Sequence record: SRR20825006_2421
DNA length: 36,568 nucleotides
Direction: 5' to 3' (one strand)
The translations under genes and the position numbers were made by a program. Under the pieces are notes generated by a model, which ran no database searches, was not told where the DNA came from, and saw only the letters and a program-made list of their open reading frames with translations. Numbering within the stretch: position 1 is the stretch's first letter; each line of letters opens with the position of its first letter. This document shows, in pieces, positions 1,234 through 34,236 of the stretch.

Positions 1234-1285
1234 TATGGCCTCCCGTACACTGACCTGATTGAGTCTATAAACAGTGGAGTGCGTC

Positions 1286-2488
1286 ATGGATCTGCAGGTG
1301 CCGGAACAGGAAGCATCATTTCGGGATGAGGTGAGAACGTTCCTGGAGGAAAACCTCACCGATGAAATTCGAGAGGCAGGCAAGATGGTGACATCGGTGT
1401 TTTCACCGGTGAAAGAGGCCATGGCCTGGCAGACGATCCTGAACGACAAGGGCTGGGCGGCACCGCATTGGCCAAAAGAGTTTGGAGGCACCGGCTGGAG
1501 TGTGACTCAGCGGGCCATTTTCGCCGAAGAGCTGGTGCGTGCGGAAACGCCGCCACTGGTGCCCATGGGGCTGCACATGTGCGGGCCCTGCCTGATTGGC
1601 TGCGGCACCGAAGAGCAGCAGAAGGAATACCTGCCAAAGATCCTCAGTGGTGAACATTTCTGGTGTCAGGGGTACTCCGAGCCCGGAGCCGGTTCCGATC
1701 TGGCATCACTGAAAACCTTTGCCGAGAAAGACGGTGATGACTACATCATCAATGGCACCAAGATCTGGACCACCTACGCCCAGCATGCCAACAAGATGTT
1801 TGCGTTGGTGCGCACCCGTAAAGACGGCAAACCGCAACAGGGCATCACGTTTCTGTTGCTGGATATGGATCTGCCGGGTATTTCCATTGAGCCCATCGTG
1901 GGGCTGGATGAAGTCCCGGAGCAGTGCCAGGTATTCTTCGACAATGTCCGCGTACCGCAGAAGAACCGGGTCGGTGAAGAAAACGATGGCTGGACTGTCG
2001 CTAAATATCTGCTGACGTTCGAGCGTGGAGGTCAGGAGTATGCTCCCAGCCTTCATGTGCAGCTGGAGAAGATCAAGATGATGGCCTCCAGACAACAGAC
2101 AGTGTTCGGTTCGTTGCAGGATGACCCGGTGTGGCAGTACAAGCTGGCTCAGCTCGAAGCGGATGTGCTGGCTCTGGAATTTACGGAAATGCGTATCAAG
2201 TCGGCGCTGTCAGCTGGCAAGGATCCTGGTGCACTGTCATCCATGACCAAGATACTGGGCACTGAATTGCTGCAGGCCATCACGGAGCTGCGCCTTGAAA
2301 CCCTGGGGGCGCAGGCGACGATTTGGCAACCCCAGGCGCTGGTGCCCGGTGACGAGCAGCCGATTATCGGGCCGGAATATGCGCTCACCGCCATGCCTCA
2401 TTATCTCAATTCTCGAGCCTGCTCCATTTACGGCGGCTCCAACGAAGTCCAGCGCGGCATCATCGCCAAAGCTGTACTGGGTTTGTAA
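1286..2488 (+). CDS. Acyl-CoA dehydrogenase, catalytic (alpha-type) subunit
   Basis: WCQGYSEPGAGSDLASL, NGTKIWTT, LTFERG and IYGGSNEVQR motifs; GGAG RBS before ATG 1286. Confidence 0.92.
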   Translation: MDLQVPEQEASFRDEVRTFLEENLTDEIREAGKMVTSVFSPVKEAMAWQTILNDKGWAAPHWPKEFGGTGWSVTQRAIFAEELVRAETPPLVPMGLHMCGPCLIGCGTEEQQKEYLPKILSGEHFWCQGYSEPGAGSDLASLKTFAEKDGDDYIINGTKIWTTYAQHANKMFALVRTRKDGKPQQGITFLLLDMDLPGISIEPIVGLDEVPEQCQVFFDNVRVPQKNRVGEENDGWTVAKYLLTFERGGQEYAPSLHVQLEKIKMMASRQQTVFGSLQDDPVWQYKLAQLEADVLALEFTEMRIKSALSAGKDPGALSSMTKILGTELLQAITELRLETLGAQATIWQPQALVPGDEQPIIGPEYALTAMPHYLNSRACSIYGGSNEVQRGIIAKAVLGL

Positions 2489-2512
2489 ACGTCCGCCAAT
2501 AAAGGAGAGATC

Positions 2513-3640
2513 GTGATGAACTTTCAATTGAGTGAAGAGCAGCAGATGTTGGCGGACAGTGCCAACCGTTTTGTCCGTGACAACAGTAATGTGGAAACCC
2601 ATCGGCAGAATAAAAAACTGATGCCCCTTAATGAAACGACTTGGCAGCAGCTTGCCGAGCTGGGCTGGCTGGCGGTGCCGTTTGAAGAGGAATACGGCGG
2701 CATGGGCATGGGGCCGTTGGAAACCATGGTGCTGTTGGAAGCCCTGGGCGAAGGTCTGATCATGTCGCCGTATATAGCCACTGTGGTGTTGGGCGGTGGC
2801 TTTCTGCGCCGGGCGGATGCCGGGACGCAAGCGAAAACGATTCCCGCCTTGATCGAAGGCCGCTTGCAGTTGGCGTTTGCCGTTGAAGAATACGAACGGG
2901 TTTTTAGCCTGGAAAATACGACGCTTCAGGGTGTACTGAAAGGCGAAGATGTGGTGCTGAATGGCACCAAGGCATCGGTCATGAATGGTGACCAGGCCGA
3001 CTTGTTGGTGGTGCTGGCTCGCACCGCTGGGCAGCCGGGTGATCAGCAGGGCTTGTCCCTGTTCTTGGTGGATGCCAATGCCGAAGGAATTGAGCGTGTA
3101 CCCCATCGCATGGTGGATGGTCGCCAGGGGGCGGAAATCCGCTTCGCTGACGTGAGCGTGTCTCAGGCTGAATGTATTGGTGAATTGAACAAGGGGTACG
3201 ACGTGGCCAAGGCGGTTCTGCAGGAAGGCTTGCTGGCCTTGTCGGCGGAGAGCGTAGGGAGCATGTCCGTATTGCTTGATGATACGGTGGAATACACCAA
3301 GACGCGCAAACAGTTCGGCGTGCCTATCAGCAAGTTTCAGGTGTTGCAGTTCCGTATGACGGATATGTTCATCGCCATGGAGCAGACCCGCTCCTTGTTG
3401 CTGGCGTCGACACTGAAATACGTGGAAGGTCACGCTGATTCAGATAAGGCCGTGCATGCCATGAAGGCCCAGTTGGGCCGTGCCGGTCGCAAGATCGCTC
3501 AGGAAGCGATCCAGATCCATGGCGGTATGGGCATGACCGATGAGCTGGGCGTGGGCCATTTCGTGAAGCGTTTGACCGCAGCGGATGGACTGTTTGGTAA
3601 CGCCGATGTGCATTTAAGGGAGATGGTAAAGCCTGCCTGA
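2513..3640 (+). CDS. Acyl-CoA dehydrogenase, partner (beta-type) subunit
   Basis: MNFQLSEEQQML, RKQFGVPISKFQVLQ and IQIHGGMGMT motifs; AAGGAG RBS; start at 2513 (GTG) or 2516 (ATG). Confidence 0.9.
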   Translation: MMNFQLSEEQQMLADSANRFVRDNSNVETHRQNKKLMPLNETTWQQLAELGWLAVPFEEEYGGMGMGPLETMVLLEALGEGLIMSPYIATVVLGGGFLRRADAGTQAKTIPALIEGRLQLAFAVEEYERVFSLENTTLQGVLKGEDVVLNGTKASVMNGDQADLLVVLARTAGQPGDQQGLSLFLVDANAEGIERVPHRMVDGRQGAEIRFADVSVSQAECIGELNKGYDVAKAVLQEGLLALSAESVGSMSVLLDDTVEYTKTRKQFGVPISKFQVLQFRMTDMFIAMEQTRSLLLASTLKYVEGHADSDKAVHAMKAQLGRAGRKIAQEAIQIHGGMGMTDELGVGHFVKRLTAADGLFGNADVHLREMVKPA

Positions 3641-3776
3641 GTCGATGCCGCGGCAGGGGCCTGGCCGCCCCCGCCGTGTGTGATGATTGCGGGCCGGGGA
3701 GCCATAAGGTATATACCCCTGACGAGGGTGTCGCTTAGGCTGCTCGTGTATCCGGTTTGAATCACAGGGGTTTGGA

Positions 3777-4403
3777 ATGTCGCGCAAACACATCGCATCG
3801 GAGGCGCTGCTCAAGAATATTCAGGTTCCCCAGGGTGACAAAACCTACGAGAAAATTCTCGATGCCGGGCTGGCGCTGTTCGTGGAGTTCGGCTTGCGGC
3901 GCACCACCATGGAGGATGTGGCGACCCGGGCGGGCATTGGTCGGGCGACGGCTTATCGCCGCTTTGCGGACAAGGACCAGTTGATTCAGGTGGTGATTTT
4001 GCGTGAATGCCAGCAGCAACTGGCGATGATAGAGAGCGACCTGGAGAAAGTGGACGATGGTCTTGAGCGCGTTCTCGAGTCTTTTGTACTGGCGGTAACC
4101 CGAGCCCATCGGCACCCGTTGCTGAAGCGGTTGCTGACCTCGGAACCGGAAACCCTTTTACCGTTACTGACGCAACGGCTGTGGCAAATGATGGGATTCT
4201 TCCGCATCTATCTGGCAGGGCTGTTGAAAGTGGAGCAAGACAACGGCGCCATACGGCAACAGCCCATGGAGCCCATGGCCGAGCTGATGTTGCGGCTTAT
4301 GCAATCCATGGTGCTGTCCCCTGATGGCATATTAAACCCGGCCGATGCGGCTAGCGTTCGTCAGGTAGCAGAAGACTACCTGCGCCCGCTTCTGGCACCT
4401 TGA
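3777..4403 (+). CDS. TetR/AcrR family transcriptional regulator
   Basis: N-terminal HTH ILDAGLALFVEFGLRRTTMEDVATRAGIGRATAYRRF. Confidence 0.92.
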   Translation: MSRKHIASEALLKNIQVPQGDKTYEKILDAGLALFVEFGLRRTTMEDVATRAGIGRATAYRRFADKDQLIQVVILRECQQQLAMIESDLEKVDDGLERVLESFVLAVTRAHRHPLLKRLLTSEPETLLPLLTQRLWQMMGFFRIYLAGLLKVEQDNGAIRQQPMEPMAELMLRLMQSMVLSPDGILNPADAASVRQVAEDYLRPLLAP

Positions 4404-4522
4404 TAACCTTCCTGACCCTCTTTTTAACCCCATTCTTCCTGACTCAAAGTAACGGGTAATTGATCCTTTTGTTCTAAACATAATGCGGAAAGCTGTATGC
4501 ATGGGTTGCTTTTCGGTCTGCG

Positions 4523-4548
4523 TGAGACGTATTTTTTTATTTGTCTCA
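4523..4548. promoter_or_regulatory. Putative TetR operator 2 (TGAGAC-N14-GTCTCA)
   Basis: Perfect 6-bp inverted repeat with 14-bp spacer, 21 bp before ATG 4570; aligns with the site at 1208. Confidence 0.6.
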
Positions 4549-4569
4549 TTGCCAGTGATCGAATGCTTC

Positions 4570-5460
4570 ATGACACAGACCGCCGAACAAACAGAACGAC
4601 GCCTGGACCTTCAACCTTTAGGGCCTGATTCCCTGACCTGGCAGGACTTTGGTTCCTGGCGTTTTCATTTGATGCTGCCACAGGCTTTTGTGCTGCAGGT
4701 GGCGCACCCGATTATTGATGCGGGTGTGGGGGAACACTCCGTCTATAAAACGGACCCCTGGGGCCGCGCCAAACGGTCCACGGAATTGTTGTGGCCCATC
4801 GTGTATGCGCGCCCCCAGCGTGCGATCGAGATGGGTGTGAAACTGTACGACCTGCATCGCTCCATCAAGGGCGTCGACAAGCACGGCAAAAAATACTTCG
4901 CACTGGACCCAGAGGCCTACAGCTGGGTGCACATCACCGGTTACGACGCCACTCTTCGCATGCATGAGCTTTACGGCACGTCGCCCACCACCCGGCAGCG
5001 CCACGCGATGTTTGCCGAATGGCGGCAACTGGGAAAACTGATGGGCATCCGTGACAAGGACCTGCCCGCCACGGAGAGCGAATACTGGGATTACTTCCAC
5101 GGCATGATCCGCGACAAGCTTGAGTGGGGAGCGGTGGTGCAGGATCTCATGCGCCCCGAGCATTATCTGGAAATTCCCAAGCCCCCAAACAGCAAGATAC
5201 CCGATACCGCCTGGCGCATGATCCTCGCCGTGATGGGGCGCTTTATGCGATTCAATTTGCGCGCAACGCTGCCCGATGCGTTCCGCGAAACCTTCCATAT
5301 TCCCTGGACGACTAATGACGAGCGCCTTTTCCGTCTGTGGTGTGGAACTTATCGCACCATGCATGCCCTGACACCGAAAAAGTGGCGATTGATTCCACTG
5401 GCCCGCAAAGCCTACACGGATGCGCAGCGCCACCCTGAAGCCTATAACAGCAATAACTGA
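4570..5460 (+). CDS. Oxygenase MpaB family (DUF2236) protein
   Basis: LGPDSLTW, LQVAHPIIDAGVGEHS, DPWGRAKRS, LHRSIKG and YFALDPEAYSWVH motifs typical of DUF2236/MpaB. Confidence 0.85.
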   Translation: MTQTAEQTERRLDLQPLGPDSLTWQDFGSWRFHLMLPQAFVLQVAHPIIDAGVGEHSVYKTDPWGRAKRSTELLWPIVYARPQRAIEMGVKLYDLHRSIKGVDKHGKKYFALDPEAYSWVHITGYDATLRMHELYGTSPTTRQRHAMFAEWRQLGKLMGIRDKDLPATESEYWDYFHGMIRDKLEWGAVVQDLMRPEHYLEIPKPPNSKIPDTAWRMILAVMGRFMRFNLRATLPDAFRETFHIPWTTNDERLFRLWCGTYRTMHALTPKKWRLIPLARKAYTDAQRHPEAYNSNN

Positions 5461-5462
5461 AG

Positions 5463-7142
5463 GTGCTTATTATGAAGTCGGATACTCGCCCCTGGTTGTC
5501 TACCTATGAATCGATGGGCTATGACTGGCACACCCTGCCAGAGCTGCCCGAGAAAACCCTGTCGGACTATGTGCGAGGGTATGCGGAGCAGTTTCCGGAT
5601 CGCGAAGCGCTGGTGTTTCTGGGGCATGCCATGAGCTACCGGCAACTGGATGAGATGGCCGATCGCATGGCGGCCCTGTTTGTTGCCCAGGGAGCGAAAG
5701 CCGGGGATGTGCTGGGCCTGCAGATGCCCAACACCCCGCAGTATGTGGTGGCCTTTATTGCCGCCGCCCGGCTGGGTATGGTCTCCACCAGTATTTCCCC
5801 GTTGATGAGCCCGCCGGAAATTATTCACCAGGCCAACGACGCCAAGGTAAAAATCCTGATGACACTGATGCCGTTCTGGCAGACCTCCATTCCACCGGTA
5901 TTGGGCAAGGTTGAAAGCCTGAGCACGGTGATTGTGTCCGGCCCCATGGACCTGGTCTCCGGTCAGGGGGAAAGCGTGGAGGAATCCCGGGACGGTGTGA
6001 ATGTCATGTCGCTACATGATCACCTGCCGTCCAGTGTGGATCTGGTCGACACGAAGGTAGCCATGGATGAAGTGCTGTATCTGCAGTACACCGGTGGCAC
6101 CACTGGTATGCCGAAAGGGGCCCGGCTCAGTTCGTTCAACCTGTTCATGAATAACCTGCAAGCCAACGTGTTCTATGGCTACCGCACCGGTGAAGAAACC
6201 GTCGCCTCGGCGTTTCCGCTGTTTCACATTGGCGGGGCGGCCGTGTTGTTCAATGCCCTGCGTACTGCGTCCACGTTCCTGCTGATCCCGGATCCCCGGG
6301 ACATTGATCATTTTGTTGGCGAAATGCAGAAGCGCACACCGACGGTGCTGGCTGCGGTGCCGGCGTTGTACCAAATGCTGTGCGCTAACGATACCTTTAA
6401 ATCACTGGATTTCAGCGGCTTGCGCATGGCCATTTCCGGTGCCGCACCGTTTGCCAAGGAAGAAGTACAGAAACTGGAAAGCGTGGTTGGTGCCGGCAAA
6501 TTTTGCGAAGTGTACGGCATGACGGAGACCAGCCCGGTGATCACGCTGAATCCGGCATCACACTTCAAGGAAGCCCACGTGGGGATTCCGCTGCCGGGCA
6601 CGGATGTGCGCATCGTGGATGCTGAAGACGGCAATATCCCGATGCCCCTGGGCGAAGCCGGAGAAATCATCGCAGCGGGTCCACAGATCATGCAGGGCTA
6701 TCTGGCCATGCCGGAAGCCTCTGAAAAAGCACTGCGGGTGATGGATGGTCAGACGTGGATGCACACCGGTGACATTGGCGTCATGGATGAAGATGGTTTT
6801 ATTCGCGTCTGTGACCGCAGCAAGGACATGTTGATCGTCGGCGGCTACAAGGTGTTTTCCGTGGAAGTGGAAAGCAAGGTGCAGAGTTTGCCATGGGTTG
6901 CCATGTGCGCAGTTGTCGGTCGCCCGGATCATGACCGGCCGGGTAACGATGTGGTGCAGCTGTATATTCAGCGCATGCCGGACAGTCAGGTTTCCGAGGC
7001 AGCCCTCAAGGCCGAGTTGTTGACGTTTTGCAAGGCCAGCATGTCGCCCTACAAGGTACCGAGAGAGGTGTTCTTCATTGATGCCATTCCTCTCACTTCC
7101 GTGGGCAAGATCGATAAAAAAACCTTGCGGAAAACCGCATAA
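5463..7142 (+). CDS. Long-chain acyl-CoA synthetase (AMP-binding, FadD-like)
   Basis: YTGGTTGMPKG, YGMTETSP, TGDIG, DRSKDMLIVGG and GKIDKK adenylation motifs; start at 5463 (GTG) or 5472 (ATG). Confidence 0.92.
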   Translation: MLIMKSDTRPWLSTYESMGYDWHTLPELPEKTLSDYVRGYAEQFPDREALVFLGHAMSYRQLDEMADRMAALFVAQGAKAGDVLGLQMPNTPQYVVAFIAAARLGMVSTSISPLMSPPEIIHQANDAKVKILMTLMPFWQTSIPPVLGKVESLSTVIVSGPMDLVSGQGESVEESRDGVNVMSLHDHLPSSVDLVDTKVAMDEVLYLQYTGGTTGMPKGARLSSFNLFMNNLQANVFYGYRTGEETVASAFPLFHIGGAAVLFNALRTASTFLLIPDPRDIDHFVGEMQKRTPTVLAAVPALYQMLCANDTFKSLDFSGLRMAISGAAPFAKEEVQKLESVVGAGKFCEVYGMTETSPVITLNPASHFKEAHVGIPLPGTDVRIVDAEDGNIPMPLGEAGEIIAAGPQIMQGYLAMPEASEKALRVMDGQTWMHTGDIGVMDEDGFIRVCDRSKDMLIVGGYKVFSVEVESKVQSLPWVAMCAVVGRPDHDRPGNDVVQLYIQRMPDSQVSEAALKAELLTFCKASMSPYKVPREVFFIDAIPLTSVGKIDKKTLRKTA

Positions 7143-7173
7143 AGCAGCCCGAATACCAACAACAATCAGGTGA

Positions 7174-8838
7174 ATGATGATGATCTCCTTGCTGCCTCAA
7201 AAGGGTAAAAAAATGCTGTTGGTCCTGCTGCTTGGCCTGCAGGGCTGCTCTTCCCTGCAAGAGTCGAGCTATGTGCCCACCTCTCCGGAAACACTGAATG
7301 AGTGGATGGTGGAAGGTCAGTTTGTGTTGCGTGCGGATGGCATAAAAAGCAAAAGCTATTTTTACTTCAAGCAGCTGGGAGAAAATTACCAGCTGGCCGT
7401 GTTGATGGATGATCCAGTGGGTGCCCCTAAGGCGGTGATCAGCGGCAATGTCTATGCGCCGCAAGAGGAAACGCTGGATGTGATCGGTGGGGCGAGCGCC
7501 AAGAAAGTGGCTGAGCACCTGCATGCCCAGCTCCAGGCGGGAGATCTGTCCTATTGGGTGCGGGGGCTGCCTGCCACCGCCAATGCGGTGATCTATCAGG
7601 AGAATCTATACCTGCCGGAGTCCATCGAAGAAAACGGCTGGAAGATTGCTTACCAGGATTACATGTCCGTGCAGGGTGGCTATCGCTTGCCTGCAGATAT
7701 GGAAATGAAATCTGAGGGCACGTCTCTGGATCTGGAACTGGTGCGAGCGGAAACCGGGTTTCTCACCAGCCCCTGTGATCAGGGCATAGCCGATGATCAG
7801 GAAACGGATAGCCCTGACGGTGCCTATGACTATGCCAGCGATGATGCGGTGAAGCGGTTAGTGCCGGAGGATGGCAGCGCGCCGTTGCCGCTGTGGATTG
7901 ATGAAGTGGCCTTCTGCAAACAGCTGGCCAAGATCCATAACAACAAAATGCCGAATCCCCGCGAGGGGCTTTTCGGCCCGGATTCCATGATGTGGAAACT
8001 GGATGGCTTGAGTGCACCACCGGCCTTTGGGGCCGGTCGTGCACTTTTGCTGCAGGTAGCGCACCCCTGGATAACAGCGGGCATTGATCAACACTCGGAA
8101 GTGCGTAATGACCCCATGGGGCGTGCCCGTCGTACTTTCTATCATATCTCCAGCATGGTGTTTGGCAGCATGCCCCAGGCGATGGCCTCGGCTAACCAGG
8201 TGCGAGACATCCATGAAGAAATCGAGGGTGAAATGACCGAAGAGGCCGGCGCCTTCCATCGGGGCTCCGAATACCGGGCCAACGAAATCAACGCCATGAT
8301 CTGGGTGCATGCAACACTGTGGGAAACCATCGTTCACATGTACGAAAAGCTGGAAGATGATCTGACCCCGGATGAGAAAAACCAGTTCTATGAAGAAACC
8401 AAACTGTTTGCCATGTTATTCGGGATTCCGGAAAGCGCCTTGCCTGCGGACTGGGATGCATTCATGGATTATAACCGTGCCATGTGGGCAAGCCCGCAGC
8501 TGACGGTGACTCCCAATGCCATGCAATTGAAGGAAGACCTGTTTGACGCCAAATCTATCTGGATGATCGCGCCACTCTGGGGGCAGAAAATCATCACCGC
8601 CGCCGAATTGCCACCGCGTATTCGGGATCAGTACGACATGAAGTATGGCTGGTGGCAGAAATTCAACTATGGCTGGATTCGTGGCGCCACCTGGACCGCC
8701 CAGGTGCTGATGCCGAAGAGTATGGAGCATCACCCGATTTATCATGAGGCACAGGCGCGCCTGGAAGGTGAACGGCTGGGCGGTTATAACCAGTGGTTGA
8801 TTGAAGCCTTCTTCGATAAGGAGCGGCTGGTCAATTGA
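7174..8838 (+). CDS. Lipoprotein fusion: N-terminal LolB-like domain plus C-terminal MpaB/DUF2236 oxygenase domain
   Basis: Signal peptide with lipobox LQGC; LolB-like LSYWVRGLP, GWKIAYQDY and LPADMEM; acidic linker; then GLFGPDSMMW, LLLQVAHP, DPMGRARRT, IHEEIEG and WVHATL. Confidence 0.8.
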   Translation: MMMISLLPQKGKKMLLVLLLGLQGCSSLQESSYVPTSPETLNEWMVEGQFVLRADGIKSKSYFYFKQLGENYQLAVLMDDPVGAPKAVISGNVYAPQEETLDVIGGASAKKVAEHLHAQLQAGDLSYWVRGLPATANAVIYQENLYLPESIEENGWKIAYQDYMSVQGGYRLPADMEMKSEGTSLDLELVRAETGFLTSPCDQGIADDQETDSPDGAYDYASDDAVKRLVPEDGSAPLPLWIDEVAFCKQLAKIHNNKMPNPREGLFGPDSMMWKLDGLSAPPAFGAGRALLLQVAHPWITAGIDQHSEVRNDPMGRARRTFYHISSMVFGSMPQAMASANQVRDIHEEIEGEMTEEAGAFHRGSEYRANEINAMIWVHATLWETIVHMYEKLEDDLTPDEKNQFYEETKLFAMLFGIPESALPADWDAFMDYNRAMWASPQLTVTPNAMQLKEDLFDAKSIWMIAPLWGQKIITAAELPPRIRDQYDMKYGWWQKFNYGWIRGATWTAQVLMPKSMEHHPIYHEAQARLEGERLGGYNQWLIEAFFDKERLVN

Positions 8839-9395
8839 AGAGGCGCGGCATCAATCTGGTGATGACGGCGCTGTGGCTGATCATGAGTGCGCAGGCATTG
8901 GCGATCAGCGGCTATGACGAAACCGAGTTTATGACGGTGGATGCGTTTTTGTCCCAAGTCTATGGCGAGCCATTGCCGGGGATGTCTCTGTTGCCGTTAC
9001 GTGGCAACTTGCGTGATCAGGTAGAGCGCGCACTGGGGCACCGGTATCGCGGCCTGCGATTGCGTTACTGGCAACAAGGGAATGTGACAACCTGGGTGAT
9101 CGACGAAAAAAGCAAAGACATGCCGATGACGCTGGCCGTGGCCGTGGGGCCTACCGGCATTACTCACTTGAACGTGCTGGTGTATCGCGAACCTCGGGGC
9201 GGAGAAGTGCACCAGGCGTTTTTTCGTCAGCAATTTATCGGGATCACCCTGCAGGATGACCTGAGCCTGTCTCGTGAGGTGGATGGCGTTACCGGCGCCA
9301 CCCTGTCGGTGGATGCCGTCAGCCGCGTGGCGGTCATGGCCCTGCTGCTCCATCAACACGTCATGGCCTCACAGGCAGAACCGGCCGCAGACTGA
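8835..9395 (+). CDS. Exported FMN-binding domain protein
   Basis: Signal peptide ending AQALA; YREPRGGEV; flavinylation motif VDGVTGATLS; TTGA overlap with the upstream stop (alternative start 8862). Confidence 0.82.
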   Translation: MKRRGINLVMTALWLIMSAQALAISGYDETEFMTVDAFLSQVYGEPLPGMSLLPLRGNLRDQVERALGHRYRGLRLRYWQQGNVTTWVIDEKSKDMPMTLAVAVGPTGITHLNVLVYREPRGGEVHQAFFRQQFIGITLQDDLSLSREVDGVTGATLSVDAVSRVAVMALLLHQHVMASQAEPAAD

Positions 9396-9466
9396 ATCCC
9401 GGGCTTTCCAAACCCGCCCTGACGTCTCACTATCGAACCATTGACGCTGCCGACCCTCTAACGTTT

Positions 9467-12136
9467 ATGGTTCGATTCTCCTCGCGCATGCTTCGCCGCT
9501 GGGCATATGGCTTGTTGTTACTGCTGGCCACCGTGCTGCTACTGATTCTGGTGGCGGTGGGTTGGGCCTATGGTACAGGCGTGCGCGTCAGTGAACCGGG
9601 TTGGCAGCAAGGCCTGACACTGGGTCAGTGGCGCCTGATACGCGACGATTGTGTGGCCGCCCGTGGCACGGACCTGACGCTCCAGGGCGTCTGGCCGCTC
9701 AAGATCAAGCAGCGGGTGCTTGCCGTCTACGATTGCAGAGCCGGGAACGCCCCGGAGTCATCCAGTGAGAGCTTCCCAGATGGGCTTCCCTGGACCCCGC
9801 CCTTTGATCTGCAGGTCGCCGAACTGGACCTGTCTGGATGGATTGATAGCCCCCTTCCCGTCATGGCGATGCAGCTTCATCAACAGGAGCAGCACTGGCA
9901 GCTGCAAGTGTCTGCACCGCAGGCGGCGCTACAGGCGCAATACCAACGTGCCGAGGGGCAATGGACTTTCAACAGTGAAGGGGCGCTGAGCGTGTTGTTG
10001 CCGGATTGGCAGGGCCACTGGCAACTGCATGGCGAAGGCAGCTGGCAAGGAGAGCCAGGCGGGGACATACAGCTGGAGATGCACTCGGCCGGACCGATAA
10101 CGCAATCGCAACGGGCGGACCTGGCCGCGCAAGCCCACTTTCAGGGCGCCGACTGGCATATGGTCGCAGATCTGGTCCAGCCATTGGTGCTGAATAATGA
10201 CTGGAAACTGACCGCCGCAGAGCCCCTTGCGGTGGCGGGCAAGGGGCTCGCGCTGACGAACGCCAGGGGCAAGCTGCAACTGGCAGGCCCGCCGGGCACG
10301 GTGATATTGCAGGCTCATAATGATCCCGGCGCAACCAACCAGGCTGGGCTTGAACAGGGCGGAGGGACGTTGCTGTTGCAGGGTGACAGCCTGGGCGGCC
10401 AGGTGGACTTTCATTGGCAGGATCGCATGCTGGTGCTTGAGCCCGCGTCGCTGACCTTGCCGCAAAATCTCACCGCGCAGTGGCAGGAGCCACTGCAGAT
10501 ACCCATGGCCCCCTCCGGCCGGGCCGATCTGCCGCTGCGGTTGGGTTACGACGGCTTGAACGTGAAAACCGGTGCCAGCCAGATTCAGTGGCAACGGGCA
10601 GGGGCTGAAGACGCGAGTCAGCTCGATTGGCAGTGGGCCGGCGATCTGTCGCTGCAGGGCCAGTGGCAGGGCTACCAATGGCAAGGCGAGTGGCAGGGCG
10701 CTGTCGGCAGTCATGGGCTGGAGGGTGAGCCCATGAAGCTCACGGCGCGGCAAGGGAGTGATCGTCTGAGCTTCCTGATGCCGGTAAATACCCTGCAAAG
10801 GGCGCCGTATGGTGCCGAGGCCAAGGTGACGGGCAAGATCTCCGGTTATCCGCTGGACGGTACCCTGGCTTTTGCCCAGTCCGGCGTCGGCTGGGCTGGT
10901 ACGCTCCAGGCCAGCACCACCTTGCCGCAGTTTGAGCGTGGCGGGCAGGTGACGATAAAGGCCCCCTGGTCGTTGGCGGATGGCACGGTCAGCGTGGCGG
11001 CAGGCAGCCAGGCGTCAATCACCGAAGGGCTTATCGGGCAGGCCCTGATCCGGCCGGTATCGCTGCGTGCATCGGGGCCGTTGCAGATCAATGAACAGGG
11101 CATCACCGGCACCGTGGCCATTCATGGCGGTGGTTTGCTGGCCGCCCGCTGGCGACTGCCGCCGATATCAGGAACGGCGACGATGACAGGCAAGCGGGTG
11201 CAGGGCCGGCTAACCGTCAGTGAGTGGCAAAGCGAATTGCGGGCCAATGGGGCGCTTGAGAATAACGGTGGTGCGAGCGGCACCTTGAGCATGCGCAGTG
11301 CGCTGGTGCCTGCCATGGGGGTTGGCCTGGCCGCTACTCCACGGCAAGGTCAGCTGGAAGGCAAAGGCCGCTGGCAATGGCGGCAGACGCTGAAAGCTTC
11401 CGGAGATATCACCCTTACCGGTGCGGATCTGGACTGGGGCAGCGTGACGGCCCGGGGTGCTGCCGGGGTGCTTCATGGTGAATACGATAACGGCCAAGTG
11501 CAGCTCAGCAGCAGGGGGCCCGTGACGGTGGACACCCTGGATATCGGCACGCCGATCACTGATCTGGCTCTCACCGTGAAAAGTGACCTGTCTCAATGGC
11601 AATTTACCGATATCCGGGCCGATCTGCTGGGTGGTTATTTACGATCCCCGGCACTGGACTGGCCCTCGGCCCGCCCGCAGCCGGTGGTGATCAGCCGTAT
11701 TGATCTCGCCGAAGTGGCGGCATTGCAAAACCCGCCACCGGTGTCACTGTCCGGGCGAGTCGGCGGCTATGTCCCCTTGCAGTTGGGAGCGGATTTTCTG
11801 GTCATTGAACAGGGGCGATTAGCCAACGAAGAGCCCCTGTCGTTGATCATTCCTGCCTCGTCCAGCGTGCAGGCCATGGCGGACTCCAATCAGGCGGTGA
11901 AATTGGCGCTGGACAGCCTTGGCACCCTGTTGATCAGCGACTTCCAGGCGCGCATGGCCATGGATAAAGTGGGTTGGCTGGATGCGGCGGTCACCATTAA
12001 AGGGATAAACCCGCAAAGAAAAAGTCTGCCGGTAGTGTTTAACTACACACATCGGGAAAACGTGTTGGCGTTGATGCGTAGCTTGCGCATTGGCGATGAA
12101 ATCACTGAACAACTGCGCACGGAGAATCGACAATGA
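9467..12136 (+). CDS. ydbH: YdbH family intermembrane bridge (AsmA-like) protein
   Basis: N-terminal TM anchor, long beta-rich body, C-terminal GINP...PVVFNYTHRENVLALMRSLRIG; adjacent to ynbE and ydbL. Confidence 0.85.
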   Translation: MVRFSSRMLRRWAYGLLLLLATVLLLILVAVGWAYGTGVRVSEPGWQQGLTLGQWRLIRDDCVAARGTDLTLQGVWPLKIKQRVLAVYDCRAGNAPESSSESFPDGLPWTPPFDLQVAELDLSGWIDSPLPVMAMQLHQQEQHWQLQVSAPQAALQAQYQRAEGQWTFNSEGALSVLLPDWQGHWQLHGEGSWQGEPGGDIQLEMHSAGPITQSQRADLAAQAHFQGADWHMVADLVQPLVLNNDWKLTAAEPLAVAGKGLALTNARGKLQLAGPPGTVILQAHNDPGATNQAGLEQGGGTLLLQGDSLGGQVDFHWQDRMLVLEPASLTLPQNLTAQWQEPLQIPMAPSGRADLPLRLGYDGLNVKTGASQIQWQRAGAEDASQLDWQWAGDLSLQGQWQGYQWQGEWQGAVGSHGLEGEPMKLTARQGSDRLSFLMPVNTLQRAPYGAEAKVTGKISGYPLDGTLAFAQSGVGWAGTLQASTTLPQFERGGQVTIKAPWSLADGTVSVAAGSQASITEGLIGQALIRPVSLRASGPLQINEQGITGTVAIHGGGLLAARWRLPPISGTATMTGKRVQGRLTVSEWQSELRANGALENNGGASGTLSMRSALVPAMGVGLAATPRQGQLEGKGRWQWRQTLKASGDITLTGADLDWGSVTARGAAGVLHGEYDNGQVQLSSRGPVTVDTLDIGTPITDLALTVKSDLSQWQFTDIRADLLGGYLRSPALDWPSARPQPVVISRIDLAEVAALQNPPPVSLSGRVGGYVPLQLGADFLVIEQGRLANEEPLSLIIPASSSVQAMADSNQAVKLALDSLGTLLISDFQARMAMDKVGWLDAAVTIKGINPQRKSLPVVFNYTHRENVLALMRSLRIGDEITEQLRTENRQ

Positions 12137-12324
12137 AAAAACTCGGGCTGGGCACGGTGTTGCTGGCCGGTTGGCTGTTGGCGGCTTGTACGCCCACAGT
12201 GGCCCTGAAAGCGCCGGAAGATCCCATCACTATTAACCTGAATGTGAAAATTGATCATGAAATCCGTTTGAAAGTGGAAAAGGATATCGATCAGTTGTTC
12301 AGTGAAGACAGCGACCTGTTTTAA
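12133..12324 (+). CDS. ynbE: YnbE family lipoprotein
   Basis: Lipobox LAAC; PITINLNVKIDHEIRLKVEKD motif; ATGA overlap with ydbH. Confidence 0.92.
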   Translation: MKKLGLGTVLLAGWLLAACTPTVALKAPEDPITINLNVKIDHEIRLKVEKDIDQLFSEDSDLF

Positions 12325-12333
12325 GGAGTGGGT

Positions 12334-12657
12334 ATGAAAATGTTGAAATCTGCATTGGCCATGGTGGCCTTGCTGCTGAGTATGGCCGCATTTGCGCTGG
12401 ATCTGGACGCAGCGAAAAGCCAGGGGTTGGTTGGTGAGCAGACCGATGGTTACCTGGGTGTTGTCAAAGCGACGCCGGCAGCGGTAGAGCTGGCAGCGGA
12501 TATTAATCAGAAACGTCGGGCCGCTTACGAGCGCATTGCCAAACAAAACGGTATCACGCTGGAGCAGGTGGCCAGATTGGCGGGCCAAAAAGCGATTGAT
12601 AAAACCGAAGCCGGGCAGTACGTGAAGACGCCGGGTGGCCAATGGGTAGAGAAATAA
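12334..12657 (+). CDS. ydbL: YdbL family (DUF1318) periplasmic protein
   Basis: Signal peptide, AKSQGLVGEQTDGYLG and INQKRRAAY; AAGGAG RBS; start at 12328 or 12334. Confidence 0.9.
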   Translation: MKMLKSALAMVALLLSMAAFALDLDAAKSQGLVGEQTDGYLGVVKATPAAVELAADINQKRRAAYERIAKQNGITLEQVARLAGQKAIDKTEAGQYVKTPGGQWVEK

Positions 12658-12864
12658 TTTTTATAAAAATTGTTTTTCTACGAAAGCATTGGGGCTAAAG
12701 TTCCAGTTAATGATTTTGGATTACTTTTATGTAGCCCGTTGATAGTAAGCAGGTTAATTTTAAGTAAATTCAGTGTCATATAGTCGCTTCGGTAGCTGCT
12801 TGTTTCTCTTCGCAGTGTTTAAATCCTCCCAAGAAATTTTGGAATAAAGGGAAAGGACACTGCC

Positions 12865-13971
12865 ATGAAAACAATTTTGCGTATGACGGCTGCAATGCCG
12901 CTGCTGATTAGCCCCTTCGCTCTGGCTGGAGAAAATGTCCCTGACCAATACGGGTACATCGGTGGTCACGCCAGTTATTATAACTTTTACGACAACGATG
13001 TAATCGGCAATGGCGGCGACGGCCTGGATGATGCCCCTTTCTTGGGTGGCCAACTGGGCTGGCGTTTTGCACCAAACTGGTCCGTACAGGGTTGGTACGA
13101 AGAAGTAGACGGTGATGCGGAGAGTAAATACAACTCCGGTCGTCGTCTGGATATGAAAAATTATTACGTCAGTGGCCGTTACCACTTTAATGACCATGGC
13201 CTGCTGGGTTTCGAACCCTATGCGGGTATCAACGTGGGCGAGCAGCTGATTGAAAGCCTGAATAACCCCAACAGTGATGATAACGACGAGCTGATGACCG
13301 GTGTGGAACTGGGTGTGCAGCGCGCGTTCTTCAAGCACGTGATTCTGGACCTGGGCACCCGTCATGCTTACAGCCAGGACCGGGAATACTGGGAAGGCCA
13401 GGTTTATGCCGGTATTAATCTGGCGTTTGGTATCAGCGATGACAGCGGCGACAGCAGTGACGATGAAGTGGTTGCTGCAACCCCTGCGGAAGTGGTGACT
13501 GGCGACAGTGACGGCGATGGTGTTAACGATGACAAGGATCGTTGCCCGAGCACTGCTTCTGATGCGGTAGTGGATGCGGACGGCTGTCAGGTCTACGAGT
13601 CCATGCAGAATCGTGAAACCTCGGTGATTTACTTCGGCTTTGACCGCGACACCATTCAGGGTCAGTTCAGCGATGAAATCAAAGGTGTGGCGGATCGCCT
13701 GAATGCGGGCGAGCAAGGGCGCATTCGTGTGGAAGGCCATGCGGACAGCACAGGCCCGGCCGATTACAACCAAAGCTTGTCAGAGCGTCGTGCCGAGTCG
13801 GTGAAAGACCGTCTGATGAAAGACTTCTCGGTAGGGTCTGACAAGATCACTACGCAAGGCTTTGGCGAGAGCAAGCCAGTGGGCGATAACAGCACCTCTG
13901 ACGGCCGCGCCAAGAATCGCCGCGCGGATATCATTGTGGAAACCGAAGAGAAAGAAGCGCAGTTCAAATAA
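12865..13971 (+). CDS. OmpA/OprF-family outer membrane protein
   Basis: Signal peptide, beta-barrel N-domain, Ca-binding TSP3-like DSDGDGVNDDKDRCP, OmpA C-domain EGHADSTG..YNQSLSERRAESV..NRR. Confidence 0.92.
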   Translation: MKTILRMTAAMPLLISPFALAGENVPDQYGYIGGHASYYNFYDNDVIGNGGDGLDDAPFLGGQLGWRFAPNWSVQGWYEEVDGDAESKYNSGRRLDMKNYYVSGRYHFNDHGLLGFEPYAGINVGEQLIESLNNPNSDDNDELMTGVELGVQRAFFKHVILDLGTRHAYSQDREYWEGQVYAGINLAFGISDDSGDSSDDEVVAATPAEVVTGDSDGDGVNDDKDRCPSTASDAVVDADGCQVYESMQNRETSVIYFGFDRDTIQGQFSDEIKGVADRLNAGEQGRIRVEGHADSTGPADYNQSLSERRAESVKDRLMKDFSVGSDKITTQGFGESKPVGDNSTSDGRAKNRRADIIVETEEKEAQFK

Positions 13972-31973: not shown

Positions 31974-32930
31974 ATGCAGGACACCCACGATTTATTGGTG
32001 CGTAGCAGCACGGATTTTCCGCCGCTGCGTCGCCATGCCACTTCCGTGTTGCAGGTCAACCTGGGTTATCTGTGCAACCTGAGTTGTGTGCACTGCCATG
32101 TGAATGCTGGCCCCACCCGCACCGAGCTGATGGACAAGGCCACCATCGACCTGATTCTTCAGGTCATCCGCAAGCGGGACATCAAGGTGATTGATCTCAC
32201 CGGTGGAGCGCCGGAGATGAATCCCCACTTTAGCTACCTGGTGCGTGAATGTCATGCACTGGGTGTGGAGGTCATCGACCGCTGTAATCTGACCATTCTG
32301 CTCGAGCCGGGTTACGAAGATTTGCCGCAGTTTTTGGCTGATCACGACGTGCATGTGGTGGCCTCCCTGCCGTGTTATTCCGAAGAAAACGTGAACAAGC
32401 AACGGGGCAAGGGCGTGTTTCAGGGCAGCCTTGAAGCCATTCGCCGCCTGAACGAGAAAGGCTACGGGGACGACAAGGTGCTGGACCTTGTCTATAACCC
32501 CACCGGCGCATCGTTACCGCCTCCACAGGCTGCCCTGGAAGCTGATTACAAGCGTGAATTGATGACGCATTTCGGTTTGCGCTTCAATCATCTGCTGACG
32601 ATTACCAACATGCCTATCAGTCGTTTTGGTGCGGTGTTGCTGGCCCATGATCAGTTCAACGATTACATGCAGCTGCTGCGCGACAGCTACAATCGCGAGA
32701 CCTTACCCGCTTTGATGTGCCGCTCCATGGTGAGCGTGGACTATCAGGGGTACCTCTACGATTGTGATTTCAACCAGATGCTGGACATGCCACAAGGTCA
32801 CCATGAGGGCCATCAGCATTTGTCGAGCTTGCTGAAAGACGACATTGAGGGCGAGCCGATTTATGTGGCCGATCACTGCTTTGGTTGCACGGCGGGCGCA
32901 GGAAGCAGCTGTGGTGGCTCGCTGGAATGA
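31974..32930 (+). CDS. arsS: Arsenosugar biosynthesis radical SAM protein ArsS-like (rSAM/Cys-rich)
   Basis: LQVNLGYLCNLSCVHCHVNAGP, DLTGGAPEMN, MCRS, YDCDFNQML and C-terminal HCFGCTAGAGSSCGG. Confidence 0.88.
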   Translation: MQDTHDLLVRSSTDFPPLRRHATSVLQVNLGYLCNLSCVHCHVNAGPTRTELMDKATIDLILQVIRKRDIKVIDLTGGAPEMNPHFSYLVRECHALGVEVIDRCNLTILLEPGYEDLPQFLADHDVHVVASLPCYSEENVNKQRGKGVFQGSLEAIRRLNEKGYGDDKVLDLVYNPTGASLPPPQAALEADYKRELMTHFGLRFNHLLTITNMPISRFGAVLLAHDQFNDYMQLLRDSYNRETLPALMCRSMVSVDYQGYLYDCDFNQMLDMPQGHHEGHQHLSSLLKDDIEGEPIYVADHCFGCTAGAGSSCGGSLE

Positions 32931-33613
32931 GCCGGGTGAGTGTCATCGTGCCGGTGCTTAATGAGGCGGATACCTTGGCCGATTCGCTGGCACGGCTACG
33001 AGCGGCACTCGCCGACGGCGATGAACTGATAGTGGTAGATGGCGGCAGTACCGACCACAGTATCGACATTGCCCGTGAAGTTGCCGATACGGTACTCACC
33101 AGTGATCAGGGGCGTAGCCTTCAGATGAATACCGGCGCGGTATGCGCACGGGGTGTGTGGCTCTGGTTCATCCATGCGGATACGGTGCTCCATGCCCGCC
33201 ATCGCGAGGCGCTGGGTAGCCTGGCCAGTCGCACCCTGTGGGGGCGTTTTGACGTTCGGCTGAGCCAGTCCCGGCCGCTGTTTCGTGTTATCGCGTTCAT
33301 GATGAACTGGCGTTCGCGCCTGACCGGAATCGCCACCGGTGATCAAGCCCTGTTTGTACGCCGCGATGTGTTTCGTGAGCTGGGCGGCTTTCCCGAGCAG
33401 CCATTGATGGAAGATATTGCCCTGTCGCGCACCTTGCGCGCTCTGGCGCGCCCGGCCTGTCTGCGCCCGCCGGTGATCACCAGTAGCCGGCGTTGGGAAC
33501 ACAAAGGGCCATGGCGCACCATTTGGCTGATGTGGTCCCTGCGCTTTCGTTACTGGCGCGGGGCCAGCCCGGAAGCGTTGCACCGGGAGTATTACCGGGG
33601 GGATGCCGGGTGA
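32927..33613 (+). CDS. GT2 glycosyltransferase, TIGR04283-like (ArsS-associated)
   Basis: VSVIVPVLNEA, VVDGGSTD, QMNTGA, FIHADT, GDQALFV, PLMED and TSSRRW; ATGA overlap with arsS. Confidence 0.88.
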   Translation: MSRVSVIVPVLNEADTLADSLARLRAALADGDELIVVDGGSTDHSIDIAREVADTVLTSDQGRSLQMNTGAVCARGVWLWFIHADTVLHARHREALGSLASRTLWGRFDVRLSQSRPLFRVIAFMMNWRSRLTGIATGDQALFVRRDVFRELGGFPEQPLMEDIALSRTLRALARPACLRPPVITSSRRWEHKGPWRTIWLMWSLRFRYWRGASPEALHREYYRGDAG

Positions 33614-34236
33614 ACGACACCCCCTTGCTGATTATTTTCGCCCGCGCCCTGCATGCTGGTCAGGTGAAAACCCGCCTGATCCCCGCTTTCGGGGCCGAGG
33701 GCGCCCTGCAGATTTATCGGCAGCTACTGTGGCAGACGCTTGCTGCCGCAGAGGCGTTTCCTGGTGATGTGCAGCTGTGGCTCGACAAGCCGGATGCACA
33801 GTTGCAGCAGGAGGCAGCGGCGCGGGGCTGGTCCAGTTTTTTGCAGGAAGGCGAGGATCTGGGGCAACGCATGGCTGGGGCGTTATCACAGGGATTGTGC
33901 CACGCTCCCCGGGTTTTGCTCATCGGCAGCGATTGCCTGTTGCTGGATCGGCCTTATTTCGAGCAGGCGCTGGATGCGCTGGGGCACACCCCTGTGGTGT
34001 TCGGCGCCAGTGAAGACGGTGGCTATGTGCTGCTGGGCAGCAGCCGGGCAGCGCTCTGGTCTTCTGACCGTTTTAGAGCTGTACGCTTCGGTGGTCCCCA
34101 TGCGTTAGAGGACAGCCGGGCCTGTTTTGCCCCGGAGCAAACCAGGGTGTTGGCGCCCCTGTGGGATGTGGATGAGCCGGACGATGTGGCACGGGCCCGT
34201 TCATCCGGACTTTTACCGTCTGTCACTTTTTCCTGA
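33610..34236 (+). CDS. TIGR04282/DUF2064-like transferase (ArsS-associated)
   Basis: IIFAR...GQVKTRL, QEGEDLGQRM, LIGSDC, EDGGYVLLG and WDVDEPDD; GTG start overlaps the upstream TGA. Confidence 0.87.
   Translation: MNDTPLLIIFARALHAGQVKTRLIPAFGAEGALQIYRQLLWQTLAAAEAFPGDVQLWLDKPDAQLQQEAAARGWSSFLQEGEDLGQRMAGALSQGLCHAPRVLLIGSDCLLLDRPYFEQALDALGHTPVVFGASEDGGYVLLGSSRAALWSSDRFRAVRFGGPHALEDSRACFAPEQTRVLAPLWDVDEPDDVARARSSGLLPSVTFS

Follow-up and report, generated by a model that had tools for sequence, protein, structure and literature searches.

A LolB-like lipoprotein domain fused to a putative MpaB/Lcp-type heme oxygenase, with a conserved FMN_bind partner gene, in Alcanivorax and related bacteria

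What does a protein do that carries a LolB-like domain at its N-terminus and an MpaB/DUF2236 oxygenase-type domain at its C-terminus? The question is raised by a gene on the plus strand (7174..8838, stop codon included) of a 36,568-nucleotide (nt) stretch of DNA from sequence record SRR20825006_2421, which we call the window. Its 554-residue product joins both domains in one lipoprotein. The answer that we favor, and regard as moderately probable, is that the fusion is an outer membrane-tethered periplasmic heme-b oxygenase that cleaves C=C bonds, has its own electron supply, and feeds an operon for acyl-CoA synthetase and beta-oxidation. Statements on characterized relatives are cited below from excerpts of the papers named.

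Domain architecture and fold of the fusion

The fusion begins with a lipoprotein signal peptide (7174..7248) that lacks a twin-arginine motif. Its N-terminus, MMMISLLPQKGKKMLLVLLLGLQGC-SS, reads as a basic n-region, a hydrophobic core, and a lipobox, LQGC, ending at Cys25 with Ser at +2. A LolB-like domain follows (residues 28-196, 7255..7761), delimited from Pfam, profile matches, and VIA-align and containing a hairpin loop, Pro81-Val82-Gly83. After a linker (residues 197-235, 7762..7878), the remainder is a putative MpaB/Lcp-type (DUF2236) heme oxygenase domain (residues 236-554, 7879..8835; Lcp, latex-clearing protein), which Pfam, VIA-align, and conservation all support and which carries Arg317-x-x-Arg320-Thr321 and His347. 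In a scan with hidden Markov models (HMMs), both domains lie well above their Pfam cutoffs: LolB (PF03550) covers residues 43-187 (E 7.2e-14, 52.5 bits versus a cutoff of 23.7), and MPAB_Lcp_cat (PF09995) covers residues 284-497 (E 4.3e-49, 168.1 bits versus 23). The conserved catalytic unit begins near residue 236, ahead of the Pfam start at 284, since a conserved segment, WI..F(C)xQLxK(V/I)H, is also found in stand-alone relatives and lies within the structural match to Lcp (221-550).

An AlphaFold2 model of the fusion, built on an alignment of 25 sequences, has a mean predicted local distance difference test score (pLDDT) of 85.9 and a predicted TM-score (pTM) of 0.85, with pLDDT below 50 only at residues 1-7, 21-32, and 208-217. 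According to pLDDT and alignment column counts, the linker consists of an invariant Cys201 followed by an acidic, poorly conserved stretch, and residues from about 203 to 232 are the sole low-confidence internal part of the model. Foldseek placed LolB chains at the top of its matches (8orn_B, E 3.2e-9, TM-score 0.70 on the target, followed by 3wjt and 1iwm), and for the C-terminal part it returned 8s1j, the t-anethole oxygenase of Stenotrophomonas maltophilia (TM-score 0.60 on the target), and the latex-clearing protein 5o1l. VIA-align gave Z scores of 15.7-18.1 for LolB chains over model residues 28-196 (8orn_B 18.1, 8cm1 17.2, 1iwm_A 16.3) versus about 8-10.6 for LolA chains, so the N-terminal domain, as modeled, is LolB-like rather than LolA-like. 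For the C-terminal domain the same program aligned 253 residues of 8s1j_A with model residues 271-553 (Z 18.0, root-mean-square deviation 3.2) and 275 residues of 5o1l_B with 221-550 (Z 17.7, root-mean-square deviation 4.1), and 5o1m_A gave Z 17.3.

Sequence-level matches to solved structures are more restricted. A full-length fusion profile searched against the PDB found solved LolB chains only (E 2e-11 to 7e-8), and single-sequence PDB searches with the C-terminal domain and with a short MpaB paralog encoded upstream returned nothing meaningful. A wider profile of the C-terminal domain matched Lcp partially, over its later segment (E 0.0065). The preliminary description, made from the DNA letters, had read this locus as one 554-residue frame with a lipobox and Ser at +2, a LolB-like domain, an acidic linker, and a DUF2236/MpaB domain. 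That reading is borne out, and both halves fold in the model as the HMMs suggest, the first as LolB and the second as Lcp and t-anethole oxygenase.

Conservation of the fusion and its relation to canonical LolB

The two-domain architecture recurs well beyond the window. Among the best 120 of 251 significant database homologs, which reach down to 36% identity, 113 contain both Pfam domains. We also assembled 58 related loci from species-representative genomes; in 39 of these the two parts are contiguous in one frame. Named Alcanivorax species are among the sources of the fused loci, along with Ketobacter and other Pseudomonadales-type metagenome-assembled genomes, and some of the loci lie on complete chromosomes. 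The worry that the fusion might be an assembly artifact can therefore be set aside.

Genome-wide questions were answered in the nearest genome, G001 (3.6 Mb; 59% of sampled words shared with the window). Within the family of that genome the fusion is matched as an uninterrupted frame in 26 of 70 genomes (25 of the 58 of high quality; 4 of 9 genera) and is absent from 44. By this patchy distribution it is an accessory paralog. A tree of the C-terminal domain (32 rows, 11 of them fused) grouped 9 of the 11 fused rows together (100/99), whereas the rows from loci L036 and L041 branched at the base without resolution; a single origin of the fusion is neither shown nor excluded by this tree (64/87; 66% of bootstraps).

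Two genomes (G010 and G014) carry two full-length copies of the fusion about 4 kb apart. At locus L007 the copies lie at 2652-4208 and 7091-8647, and an FMN_bind gene, of the kind discussed below, follows the first copy only.

Is the fusion, then, a LolB? A canonical lolB is encoded elsewhere in G001, beside ispE as the preliminary description had anticipated: it has 195 residues, scores 145.8 bits, and lies between a TPR gene and ispE. The N-terminal domain of the fusion shares 24% identity with this protein and scores 40.4 bits against the NCBIfam LolB equivalog TIGR00548, below the cutoff of 59.6. Public records name the fusion alternately "oxygenase MpaB family protein" and "lipoprotein insertase outer membrane protein LolB". 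The second name is unjustified, and we flag it as a recurrent misannotation. The hairpin loop of LolB may have a counterpart in the fusion. Pro81-Val82-Gly83 is paired with Pro-Leu-Gly when the fusion is aligned to the G001 LolB, and HMMER alignments to E. coli LolB put the loop 1-2 residues off. In an alignment of the 111 full-length homologs (at least 500 residues), on which the conservation counts below are also based, the three columns hold Pro in 88, Val in 87, and Gly in 90, with Val or Ile in 93 at the middle position. We take Leu68 to be the corresponding hydrophobic loop-tip residue of E. coli LolB, and the solved E. coli LolB entries among the PDB matches include L68D and L68E variants.

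Catalytic-type residues of the C-terminal domain

The characteristic residues of this family have been described for LcpK30, where Arg164, Thr168, and His198 are the near-invariant residues of DUF2236. His198 is the proximal heme ligand, Lys167 is a variable distal ligand, and Arg164 and Thr168 are needed for activity (PMC6311187, PMC5522427). The fusion contains R317-A-R319-R320-T321, the same R-x-x-(K/R)-T pattern as R164-x-x-K167-T168 of Lcp, and a His that lies 30 residues after the first Arg, compared with 34 in Lcp. This His, His347 (codon 8212-8214), is the His of the IHEEIEG stretch to which the preliminary description had drawn attention as a conserved region, and it is indeed present in all 111 homologs. 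Arg317, Arg319, Thr321, His297, His307, Tyr367, and Trp377 are likewise invariant, and Arg320 is found in 104. When secreted stand-alone, signal-less, and short-paralog relatives are added (32 sequences from three subfamilies), Arg317 and His347 stay invariant. There are strong grounds to expect that His347 would fall on Lcp His198, given the offset of about 30 in chain numbering that the VIA-align ranges suggest. Elsewhere in the family, the bacterial MpaB-family enzyme Nro1 is reported to have a b-type heme and to cleave C=C bonds (PMC12724181), and the t-anethole oxygenase of PDB entry 8s1j is a bacterial heme enzyme that also cleaves C=C bonds (Purwani et al. 2024, as cited in PMC12724181).

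Export and anchoring

The lipoprotein signal is conserved along with the domains. A lipobox pattern is found in 104 of the 111 homologs, the column of Cys25 holds Cys in 106, and the +2 residue is Ser in 79 and Ala in 20. None of the 111 has a Tat-like RR motif. In E. coli, Ser at +2 marks a lipoprotein for the outer membrane. If this rule extends to the present organism, it would, together with the LolB-like loop, have the fusion sorted to the outer membrane. Cys201 is present in all 111 homologs and Cys248 in 105, and all 6 that lack Cys248 have Cys200. This pattern fits a disulfide, and a conserved disulfide would place the protein in an oxidizing compartment.

A secreted FMN_bind protein as candidate redox partner

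The most conserved partner of the fusion is a gene that the preliminary description had missed. It encodes a secreted, RnfG/NqrC-like FMN_bind protein of 186 residues (8835..9395, plus strand), and its start overlaps the stop of the fusion by 4 nt. The assignment comes from Pfam (FMN_bind, E 4.3e-5, 24.5 bits versus a cutoff of 22), a structural model, and synteny. The model has an N-terminal hydrophobic helix at residues 3-23 (pLDDT 91.2), and as a whole it resembles RnfG/NqrC by Foldseek (9eri_G, E 9.7e-4; 8a1y_C, E 1e-3; and holo-NqrC, 4xa7). It contains the motif DGVTGAT with Thr156, of which D150, G154, A155, and T156 are invariant in 23 orthologs, as is the nearby S158. DGVTGAT is of the type of site that ApbE flavinylates, and ApbE has two matches in G001. 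The FMN_bind protein is probably flavinylated by ApbE on Thr156.

By tblastn, 35 of the 39 fused loci have an FMN_bind homolog immediately after the fusion. In 33 of 37 fused loci examined there is an FMN_bind open reading frame (ORF) of 174-194 residues with the motif D[GN][IV][TS]GAT at a distance of -22 to +98 nt, the exceptions being L010, L036, L041, and the second copy in L007. The FMN_bind gene is followed, at 16 of the 39 fused loci, by a gene for a PepSY_TM-like membrane protein (217-244 residues; PF03929, E 4.4e-15). PepSY-like proteins have been proposed to act as transmembrane electron carriers for flavinylated proteins (PMC8238504). This conserved partner points to an electron supply for the fusion.

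Does the flavoprotein go with the LolB-like domain or with the oxygenase domain? The closest stand-alone relatives of the catalytic domain (19 loci) bear on this. Seven of them (L042-L048) have no LolB domain, and the N-terminus resembles a signal peptide in all five that were inspected. All seven are accompanied by an FMN_bind ORF of 182-208 residues that starts between 28 nt before and 29 nt after the stop; the [ST]GAT motif is found in 6 of the 7, and a representative matches Pfam FMN_bind with E 2e-5. The other 12 stand-alone relatives (L049-L060) have no evident signal peptide, and none has an FMN_bind gene within 4 kb. The presence of FMN_bind with 7 of 7 secreted versus 0 of 12 signal-less relatives means that the flavoprotein tracks export of the heme-type domain and not the LolB domain, as expected for a periplasmic donor to a heme enzyme that is cut off from cytoplasmic reductants. 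The signal-less loci adjoin genes for a molybdopterin oxidoreductase (7 loci), an O-methyltransferase (6 loci), and peptidases, a setting that suggests another kind of substrate, possibly an aromatic one.

When the mature forms of the fusion and the FMN_bind protein were modeled as a complex, the score was 0.55 (runs 0.51, 0.55, and 0.58), and the best of three controls scored 0.00. At least 71% of contacts agreed between runs, and the partner had a pLDDT of at least 80. In calibration, 51 of 78 solved complexes reached the mark used for this score, as did 2 of 108 mismatched pairs; only 5 of the 78 did so at scores of 0.60 or less, the range that also held all 4 passing mismatches. Given the prior from synteny, we read the predicted complex as mild support for an interaction.

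Two observations in G001 touch on the membrane component. A paralogous operon at L066 (G001:C12, 1014-3531, minus strand) encodes a Porin_O_P-like protein, an FMN_bind protein of 174 residues, and a short PepSY_TM protein, and could supply the membrane electron carrier that is missing at the locus of the window. A second candidate link, between a full-length PepSY_TM gene and another MpaB paralog on contig C50, was rejected: an oppositely oriented pseudouridine synthase gene lies between the two, and no link is inferred.

Operon and neighboring genes

If the fusion oxidizes a lipophilic substrate, the genes upstream of it may indicate where the product goes. Ending 32 nt before the fusion is a gene for a FadD-like long-chain acyl-CoA synthetase of 559 residues (5463..7142, plus strand; Pfam AMP-binding, E 1e-81), which stays below the equivalog cutoffs of all NCBIfam long-chain-fatty-acid-CoA ligase models. 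Before it lies a short MpaB/DUF2236 paralog of about 296 residues without a signal peptide (4570..5460, plus strand; Pfam E 5.4e-57); in the C-terminal domain tree such short paralogs form a separate clade (100/100). The listed start of this ORF, at 4483, is probably 29 codons too early, with the true start at 4570. The extension, 4483-4569, is hydrophobic and is not conserved in 10 orthologous loci, so a signal peptide or anchor annotated there would be spurious. Upstream of the operon are a TetR-family regulator (3777..4403, plus strand; Pfam TetR_N, E 6.8e-15) and two acyl-CoA dehydrogenase genes (1274-2488 and 2513-3640, together 1274..3640, plus strand) with the N, M, and C domains of Pfam Acyl-CoA_dh.

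The synthetase is found in 30 of the 39 fused loci, the short MpaB paralog in 26, and TetR in 25, all of which are lower bounds because contigs end. The acyl-CoA dehydrogenases are syntenic mainly in Alcanivorax-like loci, and Ketobacter-type loci keep only the fusion and the FMN_bind gene. Catabolism is suggested by this context of a TetR regulator, a cytoplasmic MpaB paralog, an acyl-CoA synthetase, and two acyl-CoA dehydrogenases. Scans of 3600-12900 for promoters and terminators gave no excess of sites over shuffled sequence (4 versus a mean of 4.4, and 10 versus 8.2), so the operon is delimited by gene spacing only. The locus is covered by RNA-library contigs of two studies (X2 and X3 of P2; X11 of P7), bridging the LolB/MpaB junction (7453-8017 and 7453-7892) and the junction of the fusion with FMN_bind (8389-8981 and 8058-8918). 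We do not count them as expression evidence, since transcription cannot be read from contigs and such libraries may contain DNA.

Directly after the operon, at 9467-12657 (plus strand), is a complete ydbH-ynbE-ydbL set consisting of a YdbH-like protein of 889 residues, a YnbE-like lipoprotein of 63 residues (12133-12324), and a DUF1318/YdbL protein (12328-12657). YdbH was considered as a functional partner and rejected, as it adjoins the fusion in only 9 of the 39 loci, all of them from close Alcanivorax relatives. An OmpW-like gene occurs in 6 loci at varying positions and is a weak hint only.

Proposed mechanism and its alternatives

How might these parts work together? In the mechanism that we favor, the fusion would be exported by Sec and lipid-anchored, probably on the inner face of the outer membrane. 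Its N-terminal third, a diverged LolB fold that appears to keep the membrane-engaging hydrophobic hairpin loop of LolB, would dock the enzyme on the outer membrane and may pass a lipophilic substrate to the heme site. The C-terminal two thirds would be a heme-b oxygenase of the MpaB/latex-clearing-protein/t-anethole-oxygenase family that uses O2 to cleave C=C bonds, giving aldehydes or ketones. The FMN_bind protein would deliver electrons to the heme for reductive activation or reactivation and would itself receive them, in many relatives, from the short PepSY_TM inner membrane protein. After import, the oxidized product would be activated by the FadD-like acyl-CoA synthetase and would enter beta-oxidation, with TetR controlling the pathway. 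The module as a whole would be a periplasmic first step in the catabolism of an unsaturated hydrophobic compound by a hydrocarbon degrader. Our guess at the substrate class is an isoprenoid alkene, a 1-alkene, or an unsaturated lipid, and capture of this substrate by the LolB domain, as the preliminary description proposed, is plausible.

A more elaborate form of this mechanism would be an envelope-spanning machine in which electrons pass from PepSY_TM to a flavinylated RnfG/NqrC-like shuttle and on to the outer membrane heme oxygenase, with the LolB barrel drawing alkenes or isoprenoids that partition into the outer membrane from the inner leaflet of that membrane and feeding them to the heme. 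We put this forward tentatively, as a possibility that is doubtful. If true, no earlier case would be known of a LolB fold that delivers substrate to an enzyme as one of its domains, or of an MpaB/Lcp-type oxygenase whose electron supply is dedicated to it, and it would give marine hydrocarbon degraders a periplasmic first step for unsaturated hydrocarbons.

Several points weigh against an electron-fed periplasmic oxygenase of this kind. The available excerpts on characterized Lcps report no external reductant (PMC6311187, PMC5522427), and the need of the fusion for an electron donor is our inference. No FMN_bind gene is detectable in 4 of the 39 fused loci (L010, L036, L041, and the truncated L031), and the clade of the window lacks the PepSY_TM gene at this locus (no PF03929 or PF16357 at the window locus or at loci L003-L015). 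The complex score for the fusion and the FMN_bind protein sits in the weak band. Lcps are loaded with heme in the cytoplasm and exit by Tat (PMC6311187); with a Tat motif in none of the 111 homologs of the fusion, heme would have to be inserted in the periplasm. The equation of His347 with Lcp His198 rests on motif, spacing, and partial profile alignment rather than on superposed coordinates. Ketobacter-type loci are without the acyl-CoA synthetase and dehydrogenases. Finally, secreted relatives without LolB exist, which means that substrate capture by a LolB domain is not required for catalysis.

This last point leads to the question of whether the LolB-like domain merely tethers or positions the enzyme, through docking of the loop or by taking over its own acyl chains from LolA, with the substrate reaching the heme from the periplasm. 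The secreted stand-alone relatives, which lack LolB and keep the same FMN_bind partner, speak for this, as does the alignment of Pro81-Val82-Gly83 with the Pro-Leu-Gly loop of the G001 LolB, a loop for which solved L68D and L68E variants of LolB exist. For tethering, however, a simple lipid anchor should suffice, and the fusion keeps the whole barrel at LolB-like Z scores; the pTM of 0.85 also suggests a fixed arrangement of the LolB and MpaB domains. On balance we think a tether-only role rather unlikely. Would the enzyme instead act on lipids of the cell itself, such as unsaturated acyl chains, quinones, polyprenols, or mislocalized outer membrane phospholipid? LolB folds bind the acyl chains of endogenous lipoproteins, and ydbH-ynbE-ydbL, a gene set for phospholipid transport between the membranes, comes after the operon in the window. 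The restriction of YdbH to 9 of 39 loci, all in close Alcanivorax relatives, argues against such envelope housekeeping, as do the distribution of the fusion (26 of the 70 family genomes, 4 of the 9 genera), which is that of an accessory trait, and the TetR, acyl-CoA synthetase, and acyl-CoA dehydrogenase genes, which point to catabolism. We judge it improbable.

There are two further explanations. The globin-like domain could bind heme as cargo or as a sensor, in heme or iron handling or in redox sensing, with FMN_bind and PepSY_TM forming a periplasmic iron or heme reductase. PepSY-like flavinylation clusters have been tied to iron reduction (PMC8238504), and Lcp is structurally near globin-coupled sensors (PMC5522427). 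Against these parallels, no TonB receptor, iron transporter, or heme-uptake gene recurs in the related loci, the distal Arg and the Thr needed for Lcp catalysis are invariant, and the operon partners are catabolic enzymes of the fatty-acid type, so that this explanation appears very improbable. That the fusion is a second genuine LolB, a lipoprotein insertase with an accessory domain, is what several NCBI records imply by their naming, and its Pfam LolB score does exceed the cutoff. It is hardly credible given the score below the TIGR00548 cutoff, the 24% identity to the G001 LolB, the normal 195-residue lolB that G001 keeps beside ispE, and the absence of the fusion from 44 of the 70 family genomes.

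Comparison with known systems

Several known systems come close to the favored mechanism, an outer membrane-tethered oxygenase with its own electron supply. The t-anethole oxygenase (8s1j), whose substrates are aryl alkenes, and one other structure match the C-terminal domain best; the t-anethole oxygenase differs in having 10-13% identity and no sequence-level match, and its solved chain is a single domain of about 300 residues without LolB. LcpK30, the Streptomyces rubber oxygenase (5o1l, 5o1m), shares with the fusion the Pfam family, the fold, the R-x-x-(K/R)-T motif and His, and extracytoplasmic action. It is secreted by Tat after heme loading in the cytoplasm (PMC6311187), whereas the fusion is by its signal a Sec lipoprotein with no RR motif. 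Lcp is moreover free and extracellular and acts on polymer, and the fusion would be tethered in the periplasm, closed to polymer; no dedicated flavoprotein partner is described in the available excerpts on Lcp (PMC6311187, PMC5522427).

Cleavage of C=C bonds in a lipophilic chain by a membrane-associated MpaB-family enzyme has parallels in fungal MpaB' and in Nro1, the nitrile rubber oxygenase of Gordonia. In the mycophenolate pathway, cleavage by MpaB' is followed by beta-oxidation (10.1101/524025, PMC12591190), which is the same logic as that of the acyl-CoA synthetase and dehydrogenase genes beside the fusion. These enzymes are attached differently, MpaB' at the endoplasmic reticulum and Nro1 at the cell membrane, and the excerpts of these papers describe no LolB domain, lipobox, or FMN_bind partner for them.

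With LolB itself (1iwm, 8orn, 8cm1) the fusion shares its lipoprotein nature, a fold at Z 16-18, and perhaps a hairpin with a hydrophobic residue between Pro and Gly; unlike LolB it is a paralog (24% identity) below the equivalog cutoff, is not encoded beside ispE, and is accessory and fused to an enzyme domain. With the PepSY-like ApbE-flavinylation systems and RnfG/NqrC it shares a secreted FMN_bind protein with [ST]GAT, the RnfG/NqrC fold, and PepSY_TM in 16 of 39 loci. The PepSY-like clusters described by Meheust et al. 2021 (PMC8238504) are, in the excerpts at hand, centered on DUF2271, DUF4198, and iron reduction, and the window locus has no PepSY_TM. The main text of that paper has no mention of DUF2236, MpaB, LolB, or an oxygenase. 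A literature search found no paper combining MpaB with LolB and none combining Alcanivorax with DUF2236 or MpaB. The domains, the fold of the partner, and PepSY-like systems are thus already known, and their combination is visible in automatic annotations; no paper describing it was found.

MpaB/Lcp-type oxygenases are of interest for the breakdown of rubber and synthetic polymers and for enzymatic "ozonolysis", and their bacterial members are almost all uncharacterized. The subfamily to which the fusion belongs is often found in marine oil degraders such as Alcanivorax, Ketobacter, and their relatives, and it brings together three unstudied features: a LolB-derived tether, Sec export that implies periplasmic heme loading, and a dedicated, probably flavinylated electron-transfer partner of the exported forms only. 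If the favored mechanism is true, it would show by what means unsaturated or isoprenoid lipids are attacked in the envelope of obligate hydrocarbon degraders, would widen the known use of the LolA/LolB fold, and would add an oxygenase to the clients of extracytosolic flavinylation.

Additional observations

Other members of the family and other genes around these loci deserve brief mention. MpaB/DUF2236 is expanded in G001, with 8 matches above the Pfam cutoff in its 3.6-Mb genome, and these hydrocarbon degraders may use the family as a broad toolkit. The most divergent fusion, at L041 (37% identity, no FMN_bind gene), lies beside a gene for a 716-residue protein with a RoxA-like cytochrome c domain (PF21419, E 5.9e-20) and a TetR gene (3751-5901 and 6032-6709, both on the minus strand), with a 2OG-Fe(II) oxygenase gene downstream. 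RoxA is the rubber oxygenase of Gram-negative bacteria, and this arrangement was seen at one locus only. Further along the window, at 31974-34236 (plus strand), a cluster of genes encodes a DUF3641-containing radical SAM protein, a family-2 glycosyltransferase, and a DUF2064 protein.

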